Assembly (NCBI GenBank): GCA_000165345.1 | Contig: CM000436.1 | Location: forward strand, 1,152,001-1,216,000 | DNA: 64,000 bases | Direction: 5' to 3' | Shown: positions 1,944 to 27,452 of the stretch, one piece after another | How positions within the stretch are numbered: position 1 is the stretch's first letter | How the letters are laid out: every line of letters starts with the position of its first letter | Position numbers and translations under genes: made by a program | The notes under the pieces: model-generated | Seen by the model: only the letters and a program-made list of their open reading frames with translations | Databases searched by the model: none | Told to the model about the DNA's origin: nothing

Positions 1944-2915
1944 ATGATCATAAAAAATAATAATAATGGGTATTTTATTGATAACGTTAATAAAATTTGG
2001 GAGATCCCTATAAATAGTGAGCATATGGACATTTTAAAGGAAATTCCATGGTTTAAATATCTTACTCTACCAATTGAAAGAAATTGGAATGGTATGAAAT
2101 TATTCCTTTGGACCAATGATAATTATTATCTTGCACACACAATCTGCATAATATATGCATTTTTCATATACTTTGGACCCAAAATTATGGAGAAACGAAA
2201 ACCTTTCAAATTGGAAAAACCTTTAAAATATTGGAACTTGTTTTTGGCACTTTTTTCATTTATTGGAACCCTACGTTTAATGCCATATGTTCTAACCAAC
2301 CTCATTAAGTATGGCTTTGTATCATCCATCTGTTCTCCTCCTATTGCTCCACTAACAAAAGGTCCAGCTGGCTTATGGCTCAGCTTATTTATATATTCTA
2401 AATATATTGAATTAATTGATACATTTTTTATTATTGCTAGAAAAAAATCACTTTCTTTTTTACACTGGTTCCATCACCTTACTGTACTCCTTTACACATG
2501 GGATGCTTATGTCTGCTGCCAAACTATTGGAGTCTTTTTTTGCGCCATAAACTACTTTGTTCATTCAATTATGTACTTTTACTATTATTTATCCTCTTGT
2601 GGTAAGAGACCAAAATGGGGTATGATCATCACAATCTTACAAATTGTACAAATGATTATTGGTACAATTCTAACCACTTCAGGTATGTATTACTCTTATA
2701 AACACCCATTTGCCAATGTATTTCCAGTTGAATATCTAAGTCAACCTCTCAAAGTTGGTTGTCACTTTATCAGAACCAACGGTGTTTTTGCCTGCCTTAT
2801 GTACATCTCCTACTTTGCTTTATTCTTTGACTTCTTTATCAAAAGATATATCACAAAAGGTACACCTCTTGCTGAATGGGTAACTGCCAATAAAAAACCA
2901 ACTAAGCGCGATTAG
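1944..2915 (+). CDS. ELO-family (GNS1/SUR4) long-chain fatty acid elongase
   Basis: 323-aa ORF with an ATG start. It has multiple TM helices and the ELO histidine box FLHWFHHLTVLLYTW (HxxHH). The C-terminus carries a basic di-lysine-like tail, NKKPTKRD. Confidence 0.85.
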   Translation: MIIKNNNNGYFIDNVNKIWEIPINSEHMDILKEIPWFKYLTLPIERNWNGMKLFLWTNDNYYLAHTICIIYAFFIYFGPKIMEKRKPFKLEKPLKYWNLFLALFSFIGTLRLMPYVLTNLIKYGFVSSICSPPIAPLTKGPAGLWLSLFIYSKYIELIDTFFIIARKKSLSFLHWFHHLTVLLYTWDAYVCCQTIGVFFCAINYFVHSIMYFYYYLSSCGKRPKWGMIITILQIVQMIIGTILTTSGMYYSYKHPFANVFPVEYLSQPLKVGCHFIRTNGVFACLMYISYFALFFDFFIKRYITKGTPLAEWVTANKKPTKRD

Positions 2916-17693: not shown

Positions 17694-19058
17694 ATGCCTA
17701 TAGATATTAATAGAATTAGAGTGGAGAAAGGTGGAGATTATCAAAAGATAGCCGAGTCAGAAATGGCAAGGTATAAAGGACTAGAAACTCTTGAGGAACT
17801 CGTTAAAGTAGATCAGAAATGGAGAGAGGATATGTTTAAATTAGAGCAAAGCAAAAAGGAGTTAAATTCAATTTCAAAAGAAATTGCTCAAATTAAAAAG
17901 AAAGATCCAAAGGCAGATTGCAAGGATTTACAAGACAAAAGCGTTCAATTAAAGAAGAATCTTCCAATTATCGAGAAACAAGCATTGGAAACTGAAGAAG
18001 TAAGAGATAAGTTATGGCATAAAATTGGTAATGTCTTACAACCTGATGTTCCTATTTCCAATACAGAGGATGACAACCTTGTATTGAGAACATGGGGAGA
18101 AATACCAGATATTAAGGTTGATGGAACACCAGGGAAATTGCATCACAATGAAATCATGTCCAGATTAGGATTCTATGATAGTGTGAAAGGTGCAGAATTA
18201 GCAGGCCATCGTGGTTACTTTTTAAAGGATTATGGTGTAATAATGAGTATGGCTCTCTCACATTATGCTATGGGATTCTTGTTAAAAAAAGGATATTTGG
18301 CAATTCAACCGCCATACTTTATGAAAAGAGATTTGATGGGTAAAGCAGCTGAATTGCAGGACTTTGAGGAGACACTTTATCACATTCCTTCTGATAACAG
18401 CAAAGGCGAGGTTGATTCAAATAGCTTATTTTTGATTGCAACATCTGAGCAACCAATAGCTGCAATGCATCATAATGTGACACTTGAAGATAAGGACTTA
18501 CCAATCAAATATGCTGGTATTTCAACATGCTTTAGAAAAGAGGCAGGCGCTCATGGTAAAGATACCTGGGGAATATTTAGAATTCATCAATTTGAAAAAG
18601 TTGAGCAATTCTGTGTTACTTTACCAGAAGACTCACAAAAGATTCATGAGGAAATGATTAGCATTTCCGAGGAATTTTATCAATCTTTGGAATTACCTTA
18701 TAGAGTAATTTCAATCGTATCAGGAGCGCTTAATGACGCTGCATCGAAAAAGTATGATTTAGAAGCTTGGTTCCCCGGATATAACTCATATAGGGAACTT
18801 GTTTCATGCTCAAACTGTACTGATTACCAATCTAGAGCGCTTGAATGTCGTCTGGGATTCAGAAAAGAAGGAGAGCGTGAAAAACATTACTGCCATTTCC
18901 TAAACGGTACTTTATGTGCAATCCAAAGAACAATGTGCTGTATTGTTGAAAACTATCAAACTCCAGATGGTCTTAGAATACCAAAAGTCTTACAGCCTTA
19001 TATGAATGGCGTCGAATTCATTCCATTCAAAAACGAAACCGCTACTTGTGCCAATTAG
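17694..19058 (+). CDS. SARS: seryl-tRNA synthetase, cytoplasmic (class II aaRS)
   Basis: 454-aa ORF with an ATG start. It has the N-terminal coiled-coil arm typical of SerRS and a class II catalytic core (FRKEAGAHGKDTWGIFRIHQFEKVEQF...; motif 3 region GTLCAIQRTMCCIVENYQ). Confidence 0.9.
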   Translation: MPIDINRIRVEKGGDYQKIAESEMARYKGLETLEELVKVDQKWREDMFKLEQSKKELNSISKEIAQIKKKDPKADCKDLQDKSVQLKKNLPIIEKQALETEEVRDKLWHKIGNVLQPDVPISNTEDDNLVLRTWGEIPDIKVDGTPGKLHHNEIMSRLGFYDSVKGAELAGHRGYFLKDYGVIMSMALSHYAMGFLLKKGYLAIQPPYFMKRDLMGKAAELQDFEETLYHIPSDNSKGEVDSNSLFLIATSEQPIAAMHHNVTLEDKDLPIKYAGISTCFRKEAGAHGKDTWGIFRIHQFEKVEQFCVTLPEDSQKIHEEMISISEEFYQSLELPYRVISIVSGALNDAASKKYDLEAWFPGYNSYRELVSCSNCTDYQSRALECRLGFRKEGEREKHYCHFLNGTLCAIQRTMCCIVENYQTPDGLRIPKVLQPYMNGVEFIPFKNETATCAN

Positions 19059-19219: not shown

Positions 19220-20908
19220 CTAAATACGGCTTGGAGGCTTTCTTTCCCAAATTATTTCTCCCTCTTCTCCTATTATAAGATCGTCCACGTAATAGGGAAT
19301 ACAAAAGATTGCCATATTATATATATGCCCCTTAGAAAATGGAGAGTTTTGCGTATCTGGAAATGGTTTTAGATATGAAATCTTATTCCATGCAAGATTC
19401 TCCCAAGTAGTTAAGTTATTATAGGCAAGAAAAAGGTGATATATAACAAGCAATAGAGAGAGAAAAGCAATAAAGAGTGCATTCCCAGCAATGAAAATCA
19501 TTGAGCAAATATCAAAGATTGTTAGGCGGCTACCATTCAGATCTGCTTTGAATAGACAAATTGAGATACAATAAAGAATCCAAATACACTCGGGAAATTG
19601 AACAAGCGAAAGCCACCAAAATTTGCATCTATTATATTCACCAATGCATACACCAAGCCAAGGACAATGGTGATCATGGGTCCGAATACATCTTTCACAA
19701 GAAGTACAATGCTTTGTACGAAGAGGTTGATACATTCTGCAATAATCACAAAATCTTAACCTAACTCCATTCTGATACATTTTCCCCTCTTTAAAGACAA
19801 AGTAGCCATCATTACTTTGAAAACAGCTATTTTTGAGACTATTACCACTCATTTCTCTTCTTGGTAGGAGATCAATGCCGTCTGAAGAACATGGAGAAAG
19901 CGGAAATGATAAACTATTACTATTCAAATTTGATACTGGATGAGTTAGTTGTTCCAATTTTGGTGTTTTTTGATCCATATCATTAAAATTTAATTTAAAA
20001 GTTGATCCTTCTTCATTTAAGTTTCCCCTGTCAATAAAGCTACATTCAGGAGATTTATTATCACCATCTATAAGATCTATAGATAATTTGCAGCATTCCG
20101 AGCTATTATTACTTAACAAGTTATCCAAGATCCTATTATTATTCAAAGAAAACTGAGAAACTCCTATTGAATTTAGAAGTTGTCCAGGCGCACTTTCCAT
20201 TACTAAACTTAAACTAGCTGTGCTTTTATCAATTCTTATTGGAGATTTTATCAAATTACTTGTATTTAAAAGTGGGAAAGATGTGGTACCGCTTCCCAGT
20301 CTTAAAATACTGTTTGATAAATTTAAATCATTTGTATTTGAATCGCATCTAGAATCAGCCAATGATTTATCATCCAAAATCTCAAAACTAGAGTTATTGA
20401 TTGATTCATTTATAGTCTGTAAATTATTTATTGACCCAGCTTCAAGGTCAAATTCATCAAATTCTTCATCCCTTTCTTCATCTGAAGATCCAAATATATC
20501 ACTATTACTTATTTTTTTTTCATTAGTGCCTCTTTTCAAATTTCTTAATTCCAAATTAAATTTTAGTTTTAATGGATCCCTAATTTTGTCCACTGGTTTC
20601 AATTTTGTTGATGGACAACTTTTCAGGTATCCTGGATCTCCAAACGATATTAATATATATAAAGTATAATTTAACATACCAAATATTAAAGAGTAAACTA
20701 TTAAAAAAGGAGCATTATTTATATACCAATCATTACTTGTATTATTTAACAACAACCATACTGGATAATATGCATATAATCTAAGTATACATACAAATAT
20801 ACCTGTAATATTCCAATTATTCTTTGAATTCACAATAAAACGAGATGGTAACAATCCCAGAGGGTTATCTGTATATGATGATAAGTCATTCTCCTTGTAT
20901 CTTACCAT
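19220..20908 (-). CDS. DHHC-CRD protein S-acyl (palmitoyl) transferase with a long low-complexity insert
   Basis: 562-aa ORF with an ATG at 20908. The DHHC-CRD is CDYCRMYQPLRTKHCTSCERCIRTHDHHCPWLGVCIGEYNRCKFW. Two TM helices precede it and two follow it. Confidence 0.85.
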   Translation of the reverse strand: MVRYKENDLSSYTDNPLGLLPSRFIVNSKNNWNITGIFVCILRLYAYYPVWLLLNNTSNDWYINNAPFLIVYSLIFGMLNYTLYILISFGDPGYLKSCPSTKLKPVDKIRDPLKLKFNLELRNLKRGTNEKKISNSDIFGSSDEERDEEFDEFDLEAGSINNLQTINESINNSSFEILDDKSLADSRCDSNTNDLNLSNSILRLGSGTTSFPLLNTSNLIKSPIRIDKSTASLSLVMESAPGQLLNSIGVSQFSLNNNRILDNLLSNNSSECCKLSIDLIDGDNKSPECSFIDRGNLNEEGSTFKLNFNDMDQKTPKLEQLTHPVSNLNSNSLSFPLSPCSSDGIDLLPRREMSGNSLKNSCFQSNDGYFVFKEGKMYQNGVRLRFCDYCRMYQPLRTKHCTSCERCIRTHDHHCPWLGVCIGEYNRCKFWWLSLVQFPECIWILYCISICLFKADLNGSRLTIFDICSMIFIAGNALFIAFLSLLLVIYHLFLAYNNLTTWENLAWNKISYLKPFPDTQNSPFSKGHIYNMAIFCIPYYVDDLIIGEEGEIIWERKPPSRI

Positions 20909-21497
20909 ATCATTATTTTTCTTTTTTTTCCCTTAGTAAAATAGATTTCTGTTTTCAATATAGTTTACTTTTTATTTTACTTTAACTTTTATTCTTTATT
21001 TTATACTTATATTTTGATAAGCCTATTTAGTTACTTACCTTAACACACTTCCCCCCACTAAAAAAAAAGCCAAGAATATTAATATCAAGTGATTAATATT
21101 TCACTAAATAGATTTTCAAATCACACAGATCTCAAGGGAATAGTGTCAGATTACCTTATTTTCTCGAAATTCTAATTTTTTTTAATACTTAATTAAATTT
21201 GTTTATTGCTTTAGCATGCACACCATTTAAGAATATTTACTAATACCTTAATTTCTGACCTAAATGTGTGTAATACAACAAATAACTTGCCAGGACTCTT
21301 TTATTCTTATAATAAACCTTTAAAATATTATCAAGATGTATTATATATATATATTTTTTAGTTACACCTTCTTTAACCCGGCCTTTGAAAATTTAAATAT
21401 TTCAATTTAGTATTCATCCTTTTTTTTTTTTTTTCAAATTACCCCATCAATTGCATTTCACAGTTTACCGCCAAGTCCCTGCCTACAAATGTGAGAG

Positions 21498-21528
21498 TTC
21501 CCGCCTTTAATTAACAGTTTTGGCGGGA
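21498..21528. promoter_or_regulatory. inverted pair TTCCCGCC ... GGCGGGAG flanking TTTAATTAACAGTTTT, in the divergent promoter between the DHHC and PPTase genes
   Basis: Seen directly. A GC-richer stretch of about 100 bp follows (to about 21640). Confidence 0.5.
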
Positions 21529-21737
21529 GCTGATTGTTAGTCTTCGAGAACTGAGCGCGTAAATGTGGAATTGGGGCAAAAATGCATATATACTATCGGT
21601 TGGGACCGGAGAGGGGTAAATGGGATCTTATAAGGAGAAAAAAAAAAGAAAGAAGAATAGTATTGTCTTTGAAGTGATCATTTAATTGTTTGTTATTGAT
21701 TTTTTTTCTATTTGTTTATATCACCTAATAGTATGAA

Positions 21738-22912
21738 ATGCAAGTAGAATTAGATTTAAAGAAAAGATTGGAAATAAATGATACTTGTATATTATGGTGC
21801 ACCTTGGATGTGTTTGATAATTTGGACTTTAGTAATTTGATTAACAAATTAAGACTCGAAGTATTGGAAGATGAAGAGTTTGAAAGAATTTTAAGGTTAG
21901 TTATAAATTATTCATAGTTTAATCAAAAATTATTATGAAGGATTAATGTTAAATTGACTTATTTTATTACTTAAATTAGGTATAAAATTCTGGATGATAG
22001 AAAAAGATCTTTATTAAGTGTATTATTAATGAAATTAGCCTTAATGAATTACTATGATATTTCACCAAAACAGGTAAAAATAATTCGTGAAAAAGGAATG
22101 AAGCCGTATTTTAAATATGACTCGGAAAGTGATTCATTACTGCATTTTAATGTTTCACATGATGGAGATGTTGTGGTGATTATTTTGTCTAAATATATGG
22201 TTGGAATTGATATTATGAAAACCGAGTTATCACCTTCCAGAGTTCAGTTATCAAATAATATTATGGAAGCAAATGAGAAATTTTTGAATAATATGAAAAA
22301 TGTTTTCCATCCATCTGAGTGGGAATATATTCAGAAAGATATCTCAAAATTTATGCATTATTGGACAATTAAAGAGTCATTTGTAAAATATATTGGGCTA
22401 GGGCTTTATGTTGATCCAAGAAGGCTATTAATAGATTCAAGTTTAGTAAAAGAAAATCATCAATGTAATTTGAATTCTCCCTATTTAAAACAAAGTAATA
22501 TATATCTGGACAATCAATTACAGGTAAGGAAATCAATTTTGTTAAATATAAGTATATATATATTAATTAATGCTACTGAATATGTTAAATTAATTTATTG
22601 TCTTATTTTCAGAATTGTGAGATCTATTCATCTAACAAAATTATTTCCAATTATTATATTTCTTTCTGTATATCAGAAAGTTATTCTCAGAAATTCAACA
22701 CATACAATATTTCTAGCGATCAAGTTAAGTATATTAATGAGTTTAAGAGATCACAACTTTGTAAAAATTCTACTATAAAGGTAAGCTCATATTTCTTAGT
22801 ACTTTCTAATTAAACTCTGAACTAGATTTGACTCTTTTTTTAACATTATTATTATTACTATATATAGATACATACTCAGCAACTAAAAGTAATGAATTTT
22901 TTTTCCTTTTGA
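21738..22912 (+). CDS. Sfp/AASDHPPT-type 4'-phosphopantetheinyl transferase; exons 21738..21895, 21980..22523, 22613..22780, plus a short, uncertain terminal exon ending at the TGA at 22910..22912
   Basis: Introns 21896..21979 (GTTAGT..AG) and 22524..22612 (GTAAGG..AG) were reconstructed by hand and keep the frame. Conserved PPTase blocks are FNVSHDGDVVVIILSKYMVGIDIM (the FNxSHsG...GvDiE block) and WTIKESFVKYIGLGL (the WtxKEaxxKaxGxG block). The N-terminal exon MQVELDLKKRLEINDTCILWCTLDVFDNLDFSNLINKLRLEVLEDEEFERILR|YKILDDRKRSLLSVLLMKLAL resembles the PPTase N-terminus. The donor after 22780 (AAG|GTAAGC) is clear, but the last acceptor is ambiguous. Confidence 0.65.
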
Positions 22913-23261
22913 TACACTCTCAAGATAATGTAATATTCAATATTATCACACAGAAAATATCTAGAAATTTGAAGAAAATTCATATATCAGTAGCCACACT
23001 ACTATTTCATATTTCTAAACTTAAAGAACTCTTATATTTTATGGTGATGATGATTTTGATTTCTTTAACCATTTTTACTTTTTTCAATTAATATATTATC
23101 GCTCGTAATAATTAAAAAAAAAAACAAAATTACCCGCCAAAACCCTCACAGTGATTAGTGCATTTTTGCAGAGGAAAAAAAATTAATACCTAAATAAAAT
23201 TAATTAATTTACTATTTTCAAGCACAGAATAATTAGTTAAATTAAATATAAGAGAATCAGG

Positions 23262-23549
23262 ATGTTAGTAAACACAGATGTTGATATTTCAAATGAATTA
23301 GAATCTATGTCCATTTTAAGGCCAAAGTACCCAACACATGTAGTGACTAAACAAGGAATAGAGTTAAGAAGTTCATCTTATGGAGTTGAAGATAGAGAGG
23401 GTAATATTGGTGAATTATTAGCAGTAACTCAGATCACAGGAGTTGTTTATATGACATTTGATTCTTCTGGAAGGCTTTATTCAATTGAAAAAGATATTGC
23501 AAGAGAATTTCTTGGAGAGTTGCAGGATGAAAAGATGAGTTGGGAATAA
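23262..23549 (+). CDS. hypothetical small protein (95 aa)
   Basis: ATG start. An E2F-like ACCCGCCAAAA lies at 23132..23142, about 120 bp upstream. No family assignment, and it may be spurious. Confidence 0.35.
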   Translation: MLVNTDVDISNELESMSILRPKYPTHVVTKQGIELRSSSYGVEDREGNIGELLAVTQITGVVYMTFDSSGRLYSIEKDIAREFLGELQDEKMSWE

Positions 23550-23986: not shown

Positions 23987-24068
23987 GGCAAAGTGCTCGA
24001 GTGGTTAAGAGGTCAGTCTCGAAAACTGATAGCGTTTCGCTGCGCAGGTTCGAATCCTGCCTTTGTCG
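23987..24068 (+). tRNA. tRNA-Ser(CGA): tRNA-Ser, anticodon CGA, 82 nt, intronless, long variable arm
   Basis: Folded by hand. Acceptor GGCAAAG/CTTTGTC (one G-U), 3-bp D-stem CTC/GAG. Anticodon stem TCAGT/ACTGA with loop CTCGAAA, giving anticodon CGA. 14-nt variable arm AGCG..CGC. T-arm GCAGG-TTCGAAT-CCTGC. Discriminator G. Confidence 0.9.
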
Positions 24069-24322: not shown

Positions 24323-25879
24323 TCAAGATCTTAAAGACTTAAGGATCTGCTCAAGATGTTCGAGATCCTTGTCAATTAGTTGAATATTACAATCATAATA
24401 ATCTTGAATTTGTTGAATTAAAGAAAGCTGATGAGGAAGAATAAAGTTAATAGATATACCATTTAATCCAAATCTTCCAGTTCTTCCAATTCTATGCAAA
24501 TATGTCTCATTTTCAACTTGAACTGAAGATGTCTGATTAACAATATCAATAGAATTTGTGGAGCTGAATCTGACAGGAATATCAAAATTAATCACAAGAG
24601 TGACTTGAGGAACATCAATACCTCTTGATAAAACATCAGTAGCAATTAAAACTTTGCTTTCACCTGATCTAAATGAATCCATAACTTGATCACGAATTTC
24701 ATGATCCATTTTCTCACCAGAATTAGTTTGGGTACCACATATAACAGAAATTGCATGTCCATCTCTTCTCATATTTTCAGCTATAGAAAAGGCTGTTTTT
24801 CTAGTATTAACAAAAATGATAGACTGTCCAATTGACATACAAGCATACAAATCTGATAAAAATGAAAGCTTATCAGCATCATCATTACAAATTACATAGA
24901 ACTGTTGAATAGTATTCAATGTTAACTCTTCTTTTTTAACATTAATTTTATTTGCATTGGGTACAATCTTTTCAGCAAAAAGACGAACTTCCTCGTGGTA
25001 AGTTGCACTGAATAAAAGGATTTGTAAATTTTGTCTAAAGAATTTCCTGATTTGTCCAACTTGAGAAGCCATCATATTTCTATGATCAATCATTTCATCA
25101 GCTTCATCAATAACCATTAACTTCATAAATTCTGTTGGAAAAGATCTTTTCTTTAAAAAGTCTTGCATTTTTCCAGGAGTACATATAATTATCTGAGATC
25201 CAATAGTCTTATCGTATTTATCTCCTTGAGCAACAACAAGCCATGTTGTGATTCCTGTAAACTTTCCAAGTTCATTTACAACATCCTGGTTTTGACGTGC
25301 AAGCTCTCTAGTTGGACATAAACACATACATTGGGGATGAATAATCCTTGTATCAACTTTCCCCAACATAGCTAAAGCAAAAGTCGCAGTTTTACCACTT
25401 CCATTATGAGCTTGAGCAATTAAATTCATTGGTGAATTTAATATGAGTGGTAATGCTGCAGCTTGAATCTTAGATGGACGATTAAAACCTTTATTATAAA
25501 TACCTTTAAGTAGATCAGGTGAAAGATTAAGATCTGACCAATCTTTCGCAGAATACAGCTGAGCTTTAGGATCTACAGTTTGAACTGATATTGATGAGTT
25601 ATTTTGAACATCTCTAAATTGAAAAGCAGAATTATCGCTTTTTGGAGACTTAAAATCATCTATATCATCATTTTCAGTGTCTTTCCTTTCCATATCGTCT
25701 TCTTTAGATGTTCTTTCTTCCTCTTCTTGAACCTTTTTTGAATCTTCTAATTGAGAATTTGATGAAGTAATATTCTTAAAATATTCCTTAAGTTCATCTA
25801 CATTTGCAACTTCTCCATTTTCCTCTGTTTCTATCCTACTAGAGTTGCTATTGTTAATAACGGAATCTTCAGTTGACAT
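24323..25879 (-). CDS. DBP5: DEAD-box ATP-dependent RNA helicase DBP5/DDX19 (mRNA export)
   Basis: The ORF track start at 25882 is TTG, and the ATG is at 25879. The motif set is Q-motif region FNRPSKIQAAALPLIL, motif I NLIAQAHNGSGKTATFALAML (compare DDX19 NLIAQSQSGTGKTAAFVLAML), DEAD (VIDEADEM), SAT (FSAT) and HRIGRTGRFG. Confidence 0.85.
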   Translation of the reverse strand: MSTEDSVINNSNSSRIETEENGEVANVDELKEYFKNITSSNSQLEDSKKVQEEEERTSKEDDMERKDTENDDIDDFKSPKSDNSAFQFRDVQNNSSISVQTVDPKAQLYSAKDWSDLNLSPDLLKGIYNKGFNRPSKIQAAALPLILNSPMNLIAQAHNGSGKTATFALAMLGKVDTRIIHPQCMCLCPTRELARQNQDVVNELGKFTGITTWLVVAQGDKYDKTIGSQIIICTPGKMQDFLKKRSFPTEFMKLMVIDEADEMIDHRNMMASQVGQIRKFFRQNLQILLFSATYHEEVRLFAEKIVPNANKINVKKEELTLNTIQQFYVICNDDADKLSFLSDLYACMSIGQSIIFVNTRKTAFSIAENMRRDGHAISVICGTQTNSGEKMDHEIRDQVMDSFRSGESKVLIATDVLSRGIDVPQVTLVINFDIPVRFSSTNSIDIVNQTSSVQVENETYLHRIGRTGRFGLNGISINFILPHQLSLIQQIQDYYDCNIQLIDKDLEHLEQILKSLRS

Positions 25880-26167
25880 CAAGGCTTACTTCACTCTCCA
25901 AATCTTTTCTTGATATATATTCAAAGTGATAATTTTCGTATCGGGACAAATTCCAAGTAGCTGCAATTCAAATATATTACTATTGTAATGCTTGAATTAC
26001 TGATATAATAATCAAATCTAGATGAAAAATAGTAAATAAATTCCCTTCCTCTGATCTTTTAGATTATTGATTATTATTCTAATTCCTTTTGTTCCACCCC
26101 CTAGAAAGAATTTTTTTTAAATATTAACCTTCCTTTATTCTTTTCTTCCTTAATAATTCGGTACCAG

Positions 26168-26405: not shown

Positions 26406-27452
26406 ATGATTAAACCAACAGAAGAAGAGCTTAAAGAGTTTAAGAACTCCTGGAATCCATTAGTTCAAGAGGATATTAGCAGTGCAGATTATTACTTTAA
26501 TTCTTATGCTCATTTTGGAATACATGAAGAAATGTTAAAAGATTCAGTCAGAACTGGTTCATACCAGAAGGCCATAATGTCTAATAAACATTTGTTCCAA
26601 GATAAGATTGTCTTGGATGTAGGAAGTGGTACAGGAATTCTATGTATGTTTGCTGCAATGGCAGGAGCAAAGCACGTATATGGTATAGAATGTTCAGAAA
26701 TTGTACATGTTGCCAGAAATATAATTAAGGATAATAATCTATCTGATAAGATTACCTTTATACAGAGTAAAGCTGAAGAAGCTGTTCTTCCTGTAGAAAA
26801 GGTTGATATTATCATTTCCGAATGGATGGGATATTTACTATTATATGAATCTATGTTGGATACTGTATTATTTTGCAGAGATAAATGGCTTAAGGAAGAT
26901 GGTTTAATCTTCCCAGATAGAGCACAAATGTATATTGCAGGTATCGAAGATGCTGAATATAAACAAGAAAAGCTTGGATATTGGAATAATGTTTATGGAT
27001 TTAATTATCAATATGTCAAACCTTGTATTATGGAAGAACCAATAATAGATACCGTTGGAGAGAATGCTGTTAATACAAGCTCTTATTGTATTCTTGATAT
27101 TGACCTTTACAAGTGTAAGAAAGAAGACTTAGAATTTGTATCTCCTTTTTATCTTAAGGCTGCTAGAAAAGACTTTGTTCATGCTTTCATTGTATGGTTT
27201 GATATCATTTTTGGATGTGGTCATAAACCTGTTACTTTTACTACAAGCCCTTTTGGGAAATATACTCATTGGAAACAATCAGTATTCTACTTTGAAGAAG
27301 ATCTTGTTTGCGATACTAATGATATGATTTCAGGAATATTTGCTTTAAAGAAGAACACTAAAAATGTCCGAGATCTTGACATTAAAATCAAATTCAACTT
27401 TACAAAAAATAATTCTTCTATTGAAAGGATTAACTATTATAGACTAAGGTAA
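26406..27452 (+). CDS. PRMT1: protein arginine N-methyltransferase type I (PRMT1)
   Basis: 348-aa ORF with an ATG start. Motif I is VLDVGSGTGILCMFAAMAGAKHVYGIECS. The double-E/THW region is IISEWMGYLLLYESMLDTVLFCRDKWLKEDGLIFPDRA...YTHWKQSVFY. It aligns along its full length with PRMT1. Confidence 0.9.
   Translation: MIKPTEEELKEFKNSWNPLVQEDISSADYYFNSYAHFGIHEEMLKDSVRTGSYQKAIMSNKHLFQDKIVLDVGSGTGILCMFAAMAGAKHVYGIECSEIVHVARNIIKDNNLSDKITFIQSKAEEAVLPVEKVDIIISEWMGYLLLYESMLDTVLFCRDKWLKEDGLIFPDRAQMYIAGIEDAEYKQEKLGYWNNVYGFNYQYVKPCIMEEPIIDTVGENAVNTSSYCILDIDLYKCKKEDLEFVSPFYLKAARKDFVHAFIVWFDIIFGCGHKPVTFTTSPFGKYTHWKQSVFYFEEDLVCDTNDMISGIFALKKNTKNVRDLDIKIKFNFTKNNSSIERINYYRLR

Follow-up and report, generated by a model that had tools for sequence, protein, structure and literature searches.

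Where does the phosphopantetheinyl transferase gene of this locus end, and how many exons make up its coding sequence? The locus lies on Cryptosporidium parvum contig CM000436.1 (assembly GCA_000165345.1), in a 64,000-nucleotide (nt) stretch at positions 1,152,001 to 1,216,000; this whole stretch is the window, and positions below refer to it. A sequence-only reading had recognised a gene for an Sfp-type 4'-phosphopantetheinyl transferase (PPTase) with three or more exons at 21738-22912. Listing of open reading frames (ORFs) and splice-site reading give a forward-strand gene of 1175 nt with a spliced ORF of 915 nt, or 304 codons; the ATG is at 21738, GT donors follow 21895, 22523 and 22780, and AG acceptors precede 21980, 22613 and 22868. 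It is highly probable that the gene is CpSFP-PPT of C. parvum, an Sfp-type (group II, AASDHPPT-like) enzyme of 304 amino acids (aa) encoded in four exons separated by three GT-AG introns.

In protein alignment, the 304-aa four-exon product is 100% identical to WRK34237.1 of C. parvum. This protein is located on CP141125.1, chromosome 8 of the CpBGF telomere-to-telomere assembly of C. parvum IOWA II (GCA_035232765.1). Its gene spans 1175 nt, equal to 21738-22912, and the limits of its coding sequence are those that the sequence-only reading had proposed; there are no mismatches between the window and CP141125.1 over the 5175 nt compared. Close relatives found by protein search were Cryptosporidium PPTases only. 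The same protein cluster contains UniProt entry Q5I4D4, titled 'SFP-type phosphopantetheinyl transferase [C. parvum]'; this is CpSFP-PPT, reported by Cai, Herschap and Zhu (2005, Eukaryot Cell 4:1211). The gene has been cloned, biochemically characterised and annotated with exactly these coordinates in the current telomere-to-telomere reference; its identification here is no discovery and therefore adds nothing new.

Exon 2 carries, in a single reading frame, both PPTase motifs named by the sequence-only reading: FNVSHDGDVVVI from 22146 and WTIKESFVKYIGLGL from 22362. The protein matches Pfam families AASDHPPT_N (expectation value (E) 1.5e-17, 64 bits against a cut-off of 27, residues 40-121) and ACPS (E 2.7e-12, 47 bits against a cut-off of 25, residues 127-209), far above chance level. 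Among PDB sequences, it matches human AASDHPPT (2cg5/2byd, E 8e-17) and Bacillus subtilis Sfp (1qr0/4mrt, E 3e-8); in a profile search these matches improve to 1e-20 and 4.5e-13, respectively. The KP, FN(V/I/L)SH, G(I/V)D and W(T/S)xKE(S/A)xxK motifs of the Sfp/AASDHPPT group are all found. K94-P95, F109-N-V-S-H113, G128-I-D130 and W181-T-I-K-E185-S-F-V-K189 are invariant among Cryptosporidium orthologues. In a 28-sequence alignment that takes in bacterial Sfp-type proteins, G128, D130, W181, K184, E185, K189, G192 and G194 never vary, while K94, P95 and H113 are each shared by at least 90% of the rows. The codons of the catalytic residues lie at 22158-22160 (H113), 22209-22211 (D130), 22374-22376 (E185) and 22386-22388 (K189).

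An AlphaFold2 (AF2) model built on the same alignment has a mean predicted local distance difference test (pLDDT) score of 77. Only residues 1-257 are modelled with confidence, exon 1 included (pLDDT 88-93 for residues 11-50). The top Foldseek matches in the PDB are human AASDHPPT structures (2cg5/2byd/2c43; E ~1e-16 to 6e-15, template modelling (TM) scores 0.62-0.70, 256-261 columns). The best of them, 2cg5_A (E 1.7e-16), is followed by 4mrt_A (Sfp; 6.4e-11) and then by PcpS, PptT, MuPPT and PptAb. Pfam, AF2 and Foldseek agree on two PPTase half-domains in one chain of more than 220 aa, as against ~120 aa in AcpS. Membership of the AcpS group (group I) was considered and rejected: Foldseek matches to AcpS have E ~0.01 or worse and cover one half-domain (111-151 columns).

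Exon structure was compared in seven species: C. parvum, C. meleagridis, C. sp. chipmunk genotype I, C. ubiquitum, C. canis and the two represented by loci L005 and L006. The orthologous loci (L001-L006) were taken from Logan, from Cryptosporidium assemblies. All three introns are conserved in position; exon lengths differ by multiples of three only, while intron lengths vary freely. Identity to the distant species is 0.23-0.34 in intron 1 versus 0.59-0.61 in exon 1. Exon 3 measures 144, 150, 168, 171 or 174 nt. Alignment to human AASDHPPT, a check that the sequence-only reading had proposed, gave E 8e-17 over residues 40-256; it is gapless at the exon 1/2 (52/53) and exon 2/3 (234/235) junctions and carries into exon 3 (residues 235-256). 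This unbroken run across both junctions shows directly that introns 1 and 2 are real and are removed. Intron 2 is read through in the 2004 model XP_627358.1 and in the Logan ORF calls.

The question of the 3' end turns on a third intron at 22781-22867. This segment has the properties of a spliceosomal intron: GT and AG are conserved in position, length varies out of frame, and the flanking exons stay in phase. Its lengths in the seven species are 87, 87, 88, 86, 72, 85 and 84 nt, with the acceptor 72-88 nt past the donor. Behind the acceptor, a phase-0 peptide of the form [IL]H.Q.L..[ND][FYL] is conserved in all seven, and its first 12 codons are free of insertions and deletions. Up to the stop codon, it reads IHTQQLKVMNFFSF in C. 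parvum and C. meleagridis, IHTQQIKVLDFFPFCMLSR in the chipmunk genotype, IHIQKLKIMDYLHLD in C. ubiquitum and LHVQRLSIADLFLQDVPK in C. canis; it starts with IQIRRLGNIDFSPL in L005 and LHTQKLGINDFSPL in L006. The spliced C. parvum protein ends in STIK (exon 3) followed by IHTQQLKVMNFFSF (exon 4). Among phase-0 acceptors after 22780, a conserved peptide is reached from 22868 only (22880 gives a subset in the same frame). Acceptors at 22954 and 22975 were rejected; they enter the frame of a long downstream ORF and are not conserved. A likeness of the exon-4 peptide to the C-terminal motif of the family (e.g. ..IHFREIESFDELVS in P0010) was seen by eye only.

Reading through the donor yields tails of a different kind. 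In C. parvum, retention of intron 3 adds VSSYFLVLSN before a TAA stop at 22811-22813, which gives a 300-aa form (Q5I4D4/QOY40239.1). Tail length goes from two residues (VS, then a stop) in L006 through 10 in C. parvum and 16 in the chipmunk genotype to 23 in C. canis; V-S is all that these tails have in common, and it is the GTRAGY donor itself. Public models fall into three types: proteins of 300-301 aa that read through the GT at 22781; a 304-aa protein with the third intron 22781-22867 (CpBGF WRK34237.1); and proteins of 365-391 aa fused to a downstream ORF of 95 aa. The CpBGF annotation was hand-curated with Iso-Seq and stranded RNA sequencing (RNA-seq) (PMC12179316), and the curated model includes intron 3. 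Because donor, acceptor and exon-4 peptide are conserved, read-through tails are not, and the CpBGF annotation agrees, the four-exon 304-aa model is very likely the main product. That intron 3 is spliced in C. parvum we infer from conservation and from one curated annotation. The last exon, which the sequence-only reading had called unresolved, can thus be placed at 22868-22912 by the seven-species comparison; the end coordinate 22912 stands as that reading gave it.

A gene of three exons only, in which GT 22781 is never used and translation stops at 22811-22813, is improbable. Its product is found in Q5I4D4, QOY40239.1, WKS79737.1 and KAL5367218.1 of C. parvum, and in 301-aa models from C. 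hominis, C. tyzzeri and C. meleagridis. The IOWA-ATCC annotation, whose introns are stated to have 100% RNA-seq support (PMC8744675), does not include intron 3. Q5I4D4 lacks introns 1 and 2 and so appears to derive from a real complementary DNA (cDNA). Against this stand the unconserved tail, in which V-S alone is constant, and the perfect donor with an acceptor 72-88 nt on and an in-phase conserved peptide in 7/7 species; the later, Iso-Seq-curated CpBGF annotation also splices intron 3. A reverse primer placed at the predicted stop, inside intron 3, would probably recover only cDNA that retains the intron. Most likely, the 300-aa form reflects transcripts that retain intron 3, and its presence in the databases may go back to such a primer.

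Several points limit the case for the 304-aa protein as the main product and for the reading of the gene as a whole. The 300-aa read-through form is that of UniProt Q5I4D4 and of three further C. parvum annotations; since it recurs in several C. parvum annotations, intron retention may be frequent. The hmmsearch (PDB) and hhalign (homologues from outside Cryptosporidium) alignments end at about residue 256 or earlier, before exon 4, and AF2 pLDDT is below 50 for residues 258-304. Variable sites of exon 4 number 10, 8 and 11 at the three codon positions; they are saturated at these divergences and carry no signal. The status of sole PPTase and the substrates come from the literature, as given in a passage of PMC3171403. 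Among Logan entries there is no spliced 300-aa or 304-aa protein.

It is rather unlikely, but conceivable, that intron 3 is a conserved, regulated retention intron, with the 304-aa enzyme as its spliced product and the form cloned in 2005 as its retained one. Intron 3 is better conserved than introns 1 and 2 in five of the six species comparisons; against L006, identity is 0.50 for intron 3 and 0.26 for each of the other two. This conservation could point to a regulatory role such as retention, or could be alignment noise. Regulated retention draws support from it because intron 3 is the more conserved (5/6), and because both forms occur in public records. If this were the case, the C-terminus would be non-native in the protein characterised biochemically and in most of the orthologue models on deposit (C. 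hominis, C. tyzzeri, C. meleagridis, C. ubiquitum, C. canis and the chipmunk genotype). The junction peptide of the spliced form would be NSTIKIHTQQLK; the retained form would have NSTIKVSSYFLVLSN.

The sequence-only reading had observed correctly that the long ORF at 22828-23091 is out of frame with the donor at 22780; the explanation is that this ORF is not coding. From that donor, no phase-0 acceptor leads into its frame, and C. meleagridis, the chipmunk genotype and C. ubiquitum have it only in broken or shortened form. Just past the C. parvum stop (22913-22930), the sequence TC[TC]CAAGA[TC]A is conserved in 7/7 species. It is coding in the exon-4 frame of C. canis, L005 and L006 (..LQD/SKD/SQD..), shifted by one frame in C. 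parvum and C. meleagridis and into the other frame in the chipmunk genotype; in C. ubiquitum, an in-frame TGA precedes it. It is either left over from a longer tail in an ancestor or an element of the 3' untranslated region (UTR) that has been conserved. The extension past the N/D-F motif appears to be variable and to have been cut short in the C. parvum group, and the long ORF would partly track the abandoned frame.

The same sequence could suggest a decaying pseudogene whose 3' end was broken by a frameshift. The segment TCTCAAGATA (22917-22927), past the C. parvum stop, stands in another frame in C. parvum, C. meleagridis and the chipmunk genotype than in C. canis, L005 and L006, and the same 3' sequence follows an in-frame TGA in C. 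ubiquitum. Such decay is scarcely credible: the catalytic core is intact and strongly conserved in seven species, and only the C-terminal extension past the N/D-F motif varies, from 3 to ~43 residues with all frames open. Passages of PMC3171403 and PMC8710574 also report enzymatic activity and immunolocalisation. The sequence-only reading had held that a frameshift indicating a pseudogene would overturn its assignment; instead, the four-exon ORF is intact in 7/7 species, which effectively refutes the pseudogene.

The third type of public model joins the PPTase to the 95-aa ORF downstream, from donor 22780 to an acceptor just before 23262, for a product of ~390 aa. Four deposited models do so (C. 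hominis OLQ16363.1, the chipmunk genotype, C. ubiquitum and a 366-aa model of C. meleagridis). Donor 22780 itself is genuine and, going by the C. hominis model, C. parvum has an in-phase AG at 23252. Such a fusion is very improbable, however; the junctions of the four models differ and are non-homologous, the ATG of the 95-aa ORF is kept in 7/7 species, and a stop codon in exon 4 precedes that ORF in every species. The intron required would be of ~470 nt, compared with 70-91 nt for introns of the PPTase gene, and would hold three conserved promoter-like blocks (23097-23169). Curated annotation separates the two genes in C. parvum, in C. hominis, in C. tyzzeri and in C. meleagridis, and PMC8744675 cautions that in this compact genome short-read RNA-seq can falsely fuse neighbouring genes on the same strand. 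Models that fuse the PPTase and the 95-aa ORF are probably artefacts. The blocks at 23097-23169 would mark a separate promoter of the 95-aa ORF and therefore the 3' limit of the PPTase gene.

Fold, motifs and exon structure, like the identity to the deposited gene, were observed directly. The catalytic mechanism is that generally known for the Sfp/AASDHPPT family. Accordingly worded for this protein, the enzyme would be a monomer of two pseudo-symmetric half-domains in which D130 and E185 hold the Mg2+ that positions the pyrophosphate of coenzyme A (CoA), assisted by H113 and K189. The phosphopantetheine arm of CoA would be moved onto the conserved serine of apo-carrier domains; in C. parvum, these would be the acyl carrier protein (ACP) domains of the very large type I fatty acid synthase (FAS; CpFAS1) and polyketide synthase (PKS; CpPKS1). 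The main messenger RNA, lacking intron 3, would give the 304-aa enzyme, and a transcript that keeps intron 3 the 300-aa form.

Published work on the protein is consistent with this scheme. A passage of PMC3171403 that summarises Cai et al. (2005) describes a single Sfp PPTase that modifies both the type I PKS and FAS, with no AcpS, and reports CoA-dependent conversion from apo to holo form by the C. parvum enzyme. This agrees with the sequence-only reading, which had assigned a single Sfp-type PPTase to the type I FAS/PKS of Cryptosporidium. A passage of PMC8710574 citing the same study places CpSFP-PPT immunofluorescence mainly in intracellular merozoites.

Table 1. Gene parts, neighbouring genes and conserved blocks of the PPTase locus (positions in the window)
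Feature	Positions	Strand	Remarks
Exon 1	21738-21895	+	ATG to AG/gt; last 2 nt begin codon 53 (phase 2); 158 nt (161 in L005); GT donor at the same position in 7 species
Intron 1	21896-21979	+	84 nt, GT..AG; position kept, length 79-90 nt, not multiples of 3
Exon 2	21980-22523	+	Most of both PPTase half-domains, with H113, D130, E185 and K189; Pfam matches
Intron 2	22524-22612	+	89 nt, GTAAGG..CAG; kept in 7 species, 70-91 nt
Exon 3	22613-22780	+	Last core strands (NCEIYSSNKIISNYYISFCISE), then variable linker
Intron 3	22781-22867	+	87 nt, GTAAGC..TAG; donor AAG/GTRAGY and YAG acceptor in 7/7 species
Exon 4	22868-22912	+	45 nt; encodes IHTQQLKVMNFFSF, TGA stop 22910-22912; matches C-terminus of WRK34237.1
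Long ORF	22828-23091	+	Non-coding: end of intron 3, exon 4 in the wrong frame, 3' UTR or intergenic DNA
Intergenic block, DHHC/PPTase	21439-21589	.	Presumed E2F-like GGCGGGA/GGCGCGC sites and GCAAAAATGCA
Block TATCGCTCGTAAT	23097-23109	.	7-species alignment
Block TTACCCGCCAAAACCCTCAC	23130-23149	.	7-species alignment
Block TGCATTTTTGC	23159-23169	.	7-species alignment
95-aa ORF	23262-23549	+	Hypothetical protein; ATG conserved in 7 species
ELO elongase	1944-2915		Pfam ELO 1.4e-72
Seryl-tRNA synthetase	17694-19058		Neighbour gene
DHHC palmitoyltransferase	19220-20908	-	Pfam DHHC 8e-28; divergent from PPTase
tRNA-Ser (anticodon CGA)	23987-24068	+	Rfam 59 bits, ARAGORN; between 95-aa ORF and DEAD-box helicase
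DEAD-box helicase	24323-25882	-	Neighbour gene
Type I protein arginine methyltransferase	26406-27452		Neighbour gene

The coordinates of the locus are collected in Table 1. Two genes that the sequence-only reading had named, the adjoining DHHC palmitoyltransferase and the ELO elongase starting at 1944, are borne out by their Pfam matches. The order of genes for seryl-tRNA synthetase, DHHC protein, PPTase, 95-aa ORF, DEAD-box helicase and protein arginine methyltransferase is kept in the six orthologous loci where the DNA extends far enough.

In C. parvum, C. hominis, C. tyzzeri and C. meleagridis, annotation treats the 95-aa ORF as a gene of its own. Across the genus, with C. felis and C. bovis included, its identity is 70-91%, which makes it much better conserved than the tail of the PPTase. 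Neither Pfam nor the PDB has a match to it, and an exhaustive HMMER search gave no credible homologue outside Cryptosporidium; weak HMMER matches to YadA-head and NHL repeat proteins were judged spurious. The AF2 model is of low confidence (pLDDT 54) and is all-beta up to a helix at the C-terminus. Records of C. tyzzeri and C. felis mislabel this ORF as '4'-phosphopantetheinyl transferase'. In C. canis (L004 4326-4828; P0006/P0008), PPTase models stop after exon 2, at 244 and 237 aa, and the counterpart of the 95-aa ORF is modelled with 146 aa, diverging after ..VTQITG; these public models appear to be mis-annotated.

Conserved noncoding DNA is found on both sides of the PPTase gene. The first ~68 nt of the block at 21439-21589 (TTACCCCAT..GTTCCCGCC) are nearly invariant in seven species, at GC contents of 27% to 46%, and the intergenic DNA around the block is barely alignable; such strong conservation is striking. 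The block holds an inverted pair, TTCCCGCC/GGCGGGA, together with GGCGCGCAAA and GCAAAAATGCA. Within the 64-kb window, the exact 11-mer GCAAAAATGCA is limited to two places, 21576 (+) and 23159 (-), one in each of the promoter-like regions on either side of the PPTase gene. The block is probably a promoter module common to the divergent DHHC and PPTase genes. A noncoding RNA was considered here and rejected: the block has no Rfam match, and RNAalifold detected no covariation in it (term +0.87). At gathering thresholds, Rfam returned the tRNA-Ser at 23987-24068 only; MAT2A_C and SNORD11B in 20900-23300 (E up to 1) are chance matches below threshold. A SNORD-like C box at ~23046 was discarded, being unconserved in the chipmunk genotype and C. 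ubiquitum. A bacterial promoter and terminator scan gave counts at the level of shuffled sequence; its models are bacterial and the host is a eukaryote.

According to the literature, the enzyme is the sole activator of FAS and PKS carrier domains, a role known since 2005, and would as such be a conceivable drug target. For expression or modelling, the 304-aa four-exon form is advised. The comparison does not support the 3' ends, read-through or fused, of the orthologue models in at least six further Cryptosporidium assemblies. By-products of the analysis are the comparative case for four exons and a list of orthologue models with doubtful 3' ends.

Compared with the known forms of CpSFP-PPT, the 304-aa product is the same gene as WRK34237.1, with no difference. 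Q5I4D4 is 97% identical to it, and only the last residues differ; where the 304-aa form has IHTQQLKVMNFFSF, encoded by exon 4, Q5I4D4 and the IOWA-ATCC model close with VSSYFLVLSN, encoded by intron 3.

The nearest solved relative by both sequence and fold is human AASDHPPT (2byd, 2c43, 2cg5), a eukaryotic Sfp-type enzyme of broad specificity (24% identity). The two share the architecture of two half-domains and the FN(V/I)SH, GIDIM and W(T/A)(I/L)KESF(V/I)K motifs. In contrast to the human enzyme, the C. parvum PPTase has a linker of its own (residues 258-290, low pLDDT) and a far shorter C-terminal tail. By eye, exon 4 may resemble the C-terminal strand of human AASDHPPT; no alignment tool confirmed this likeness.

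Group II of the PPTases has B. subtilis Sfp (1qr0, 4mrt) as its founding member. Sfp resembles the C. parvum enzyme in sequence (E 3e-8; profile 4.5e-13) and in fold (Foldseek E 6e-11, TM 0.69). Sfp is a bacterial protein associated with nonribosomal peptide synthetases; it is shorter (~225 aa) and has neither the linker nor the N-terminal extension that exon 1 encodes. AcpS-type (group I) holo-ACP synthases have the half-domain of the ACPS superfamily (PF01648) in common with the C. parvum PPTase, but are trimers of ~120-aa proteins and align to one half of it only.

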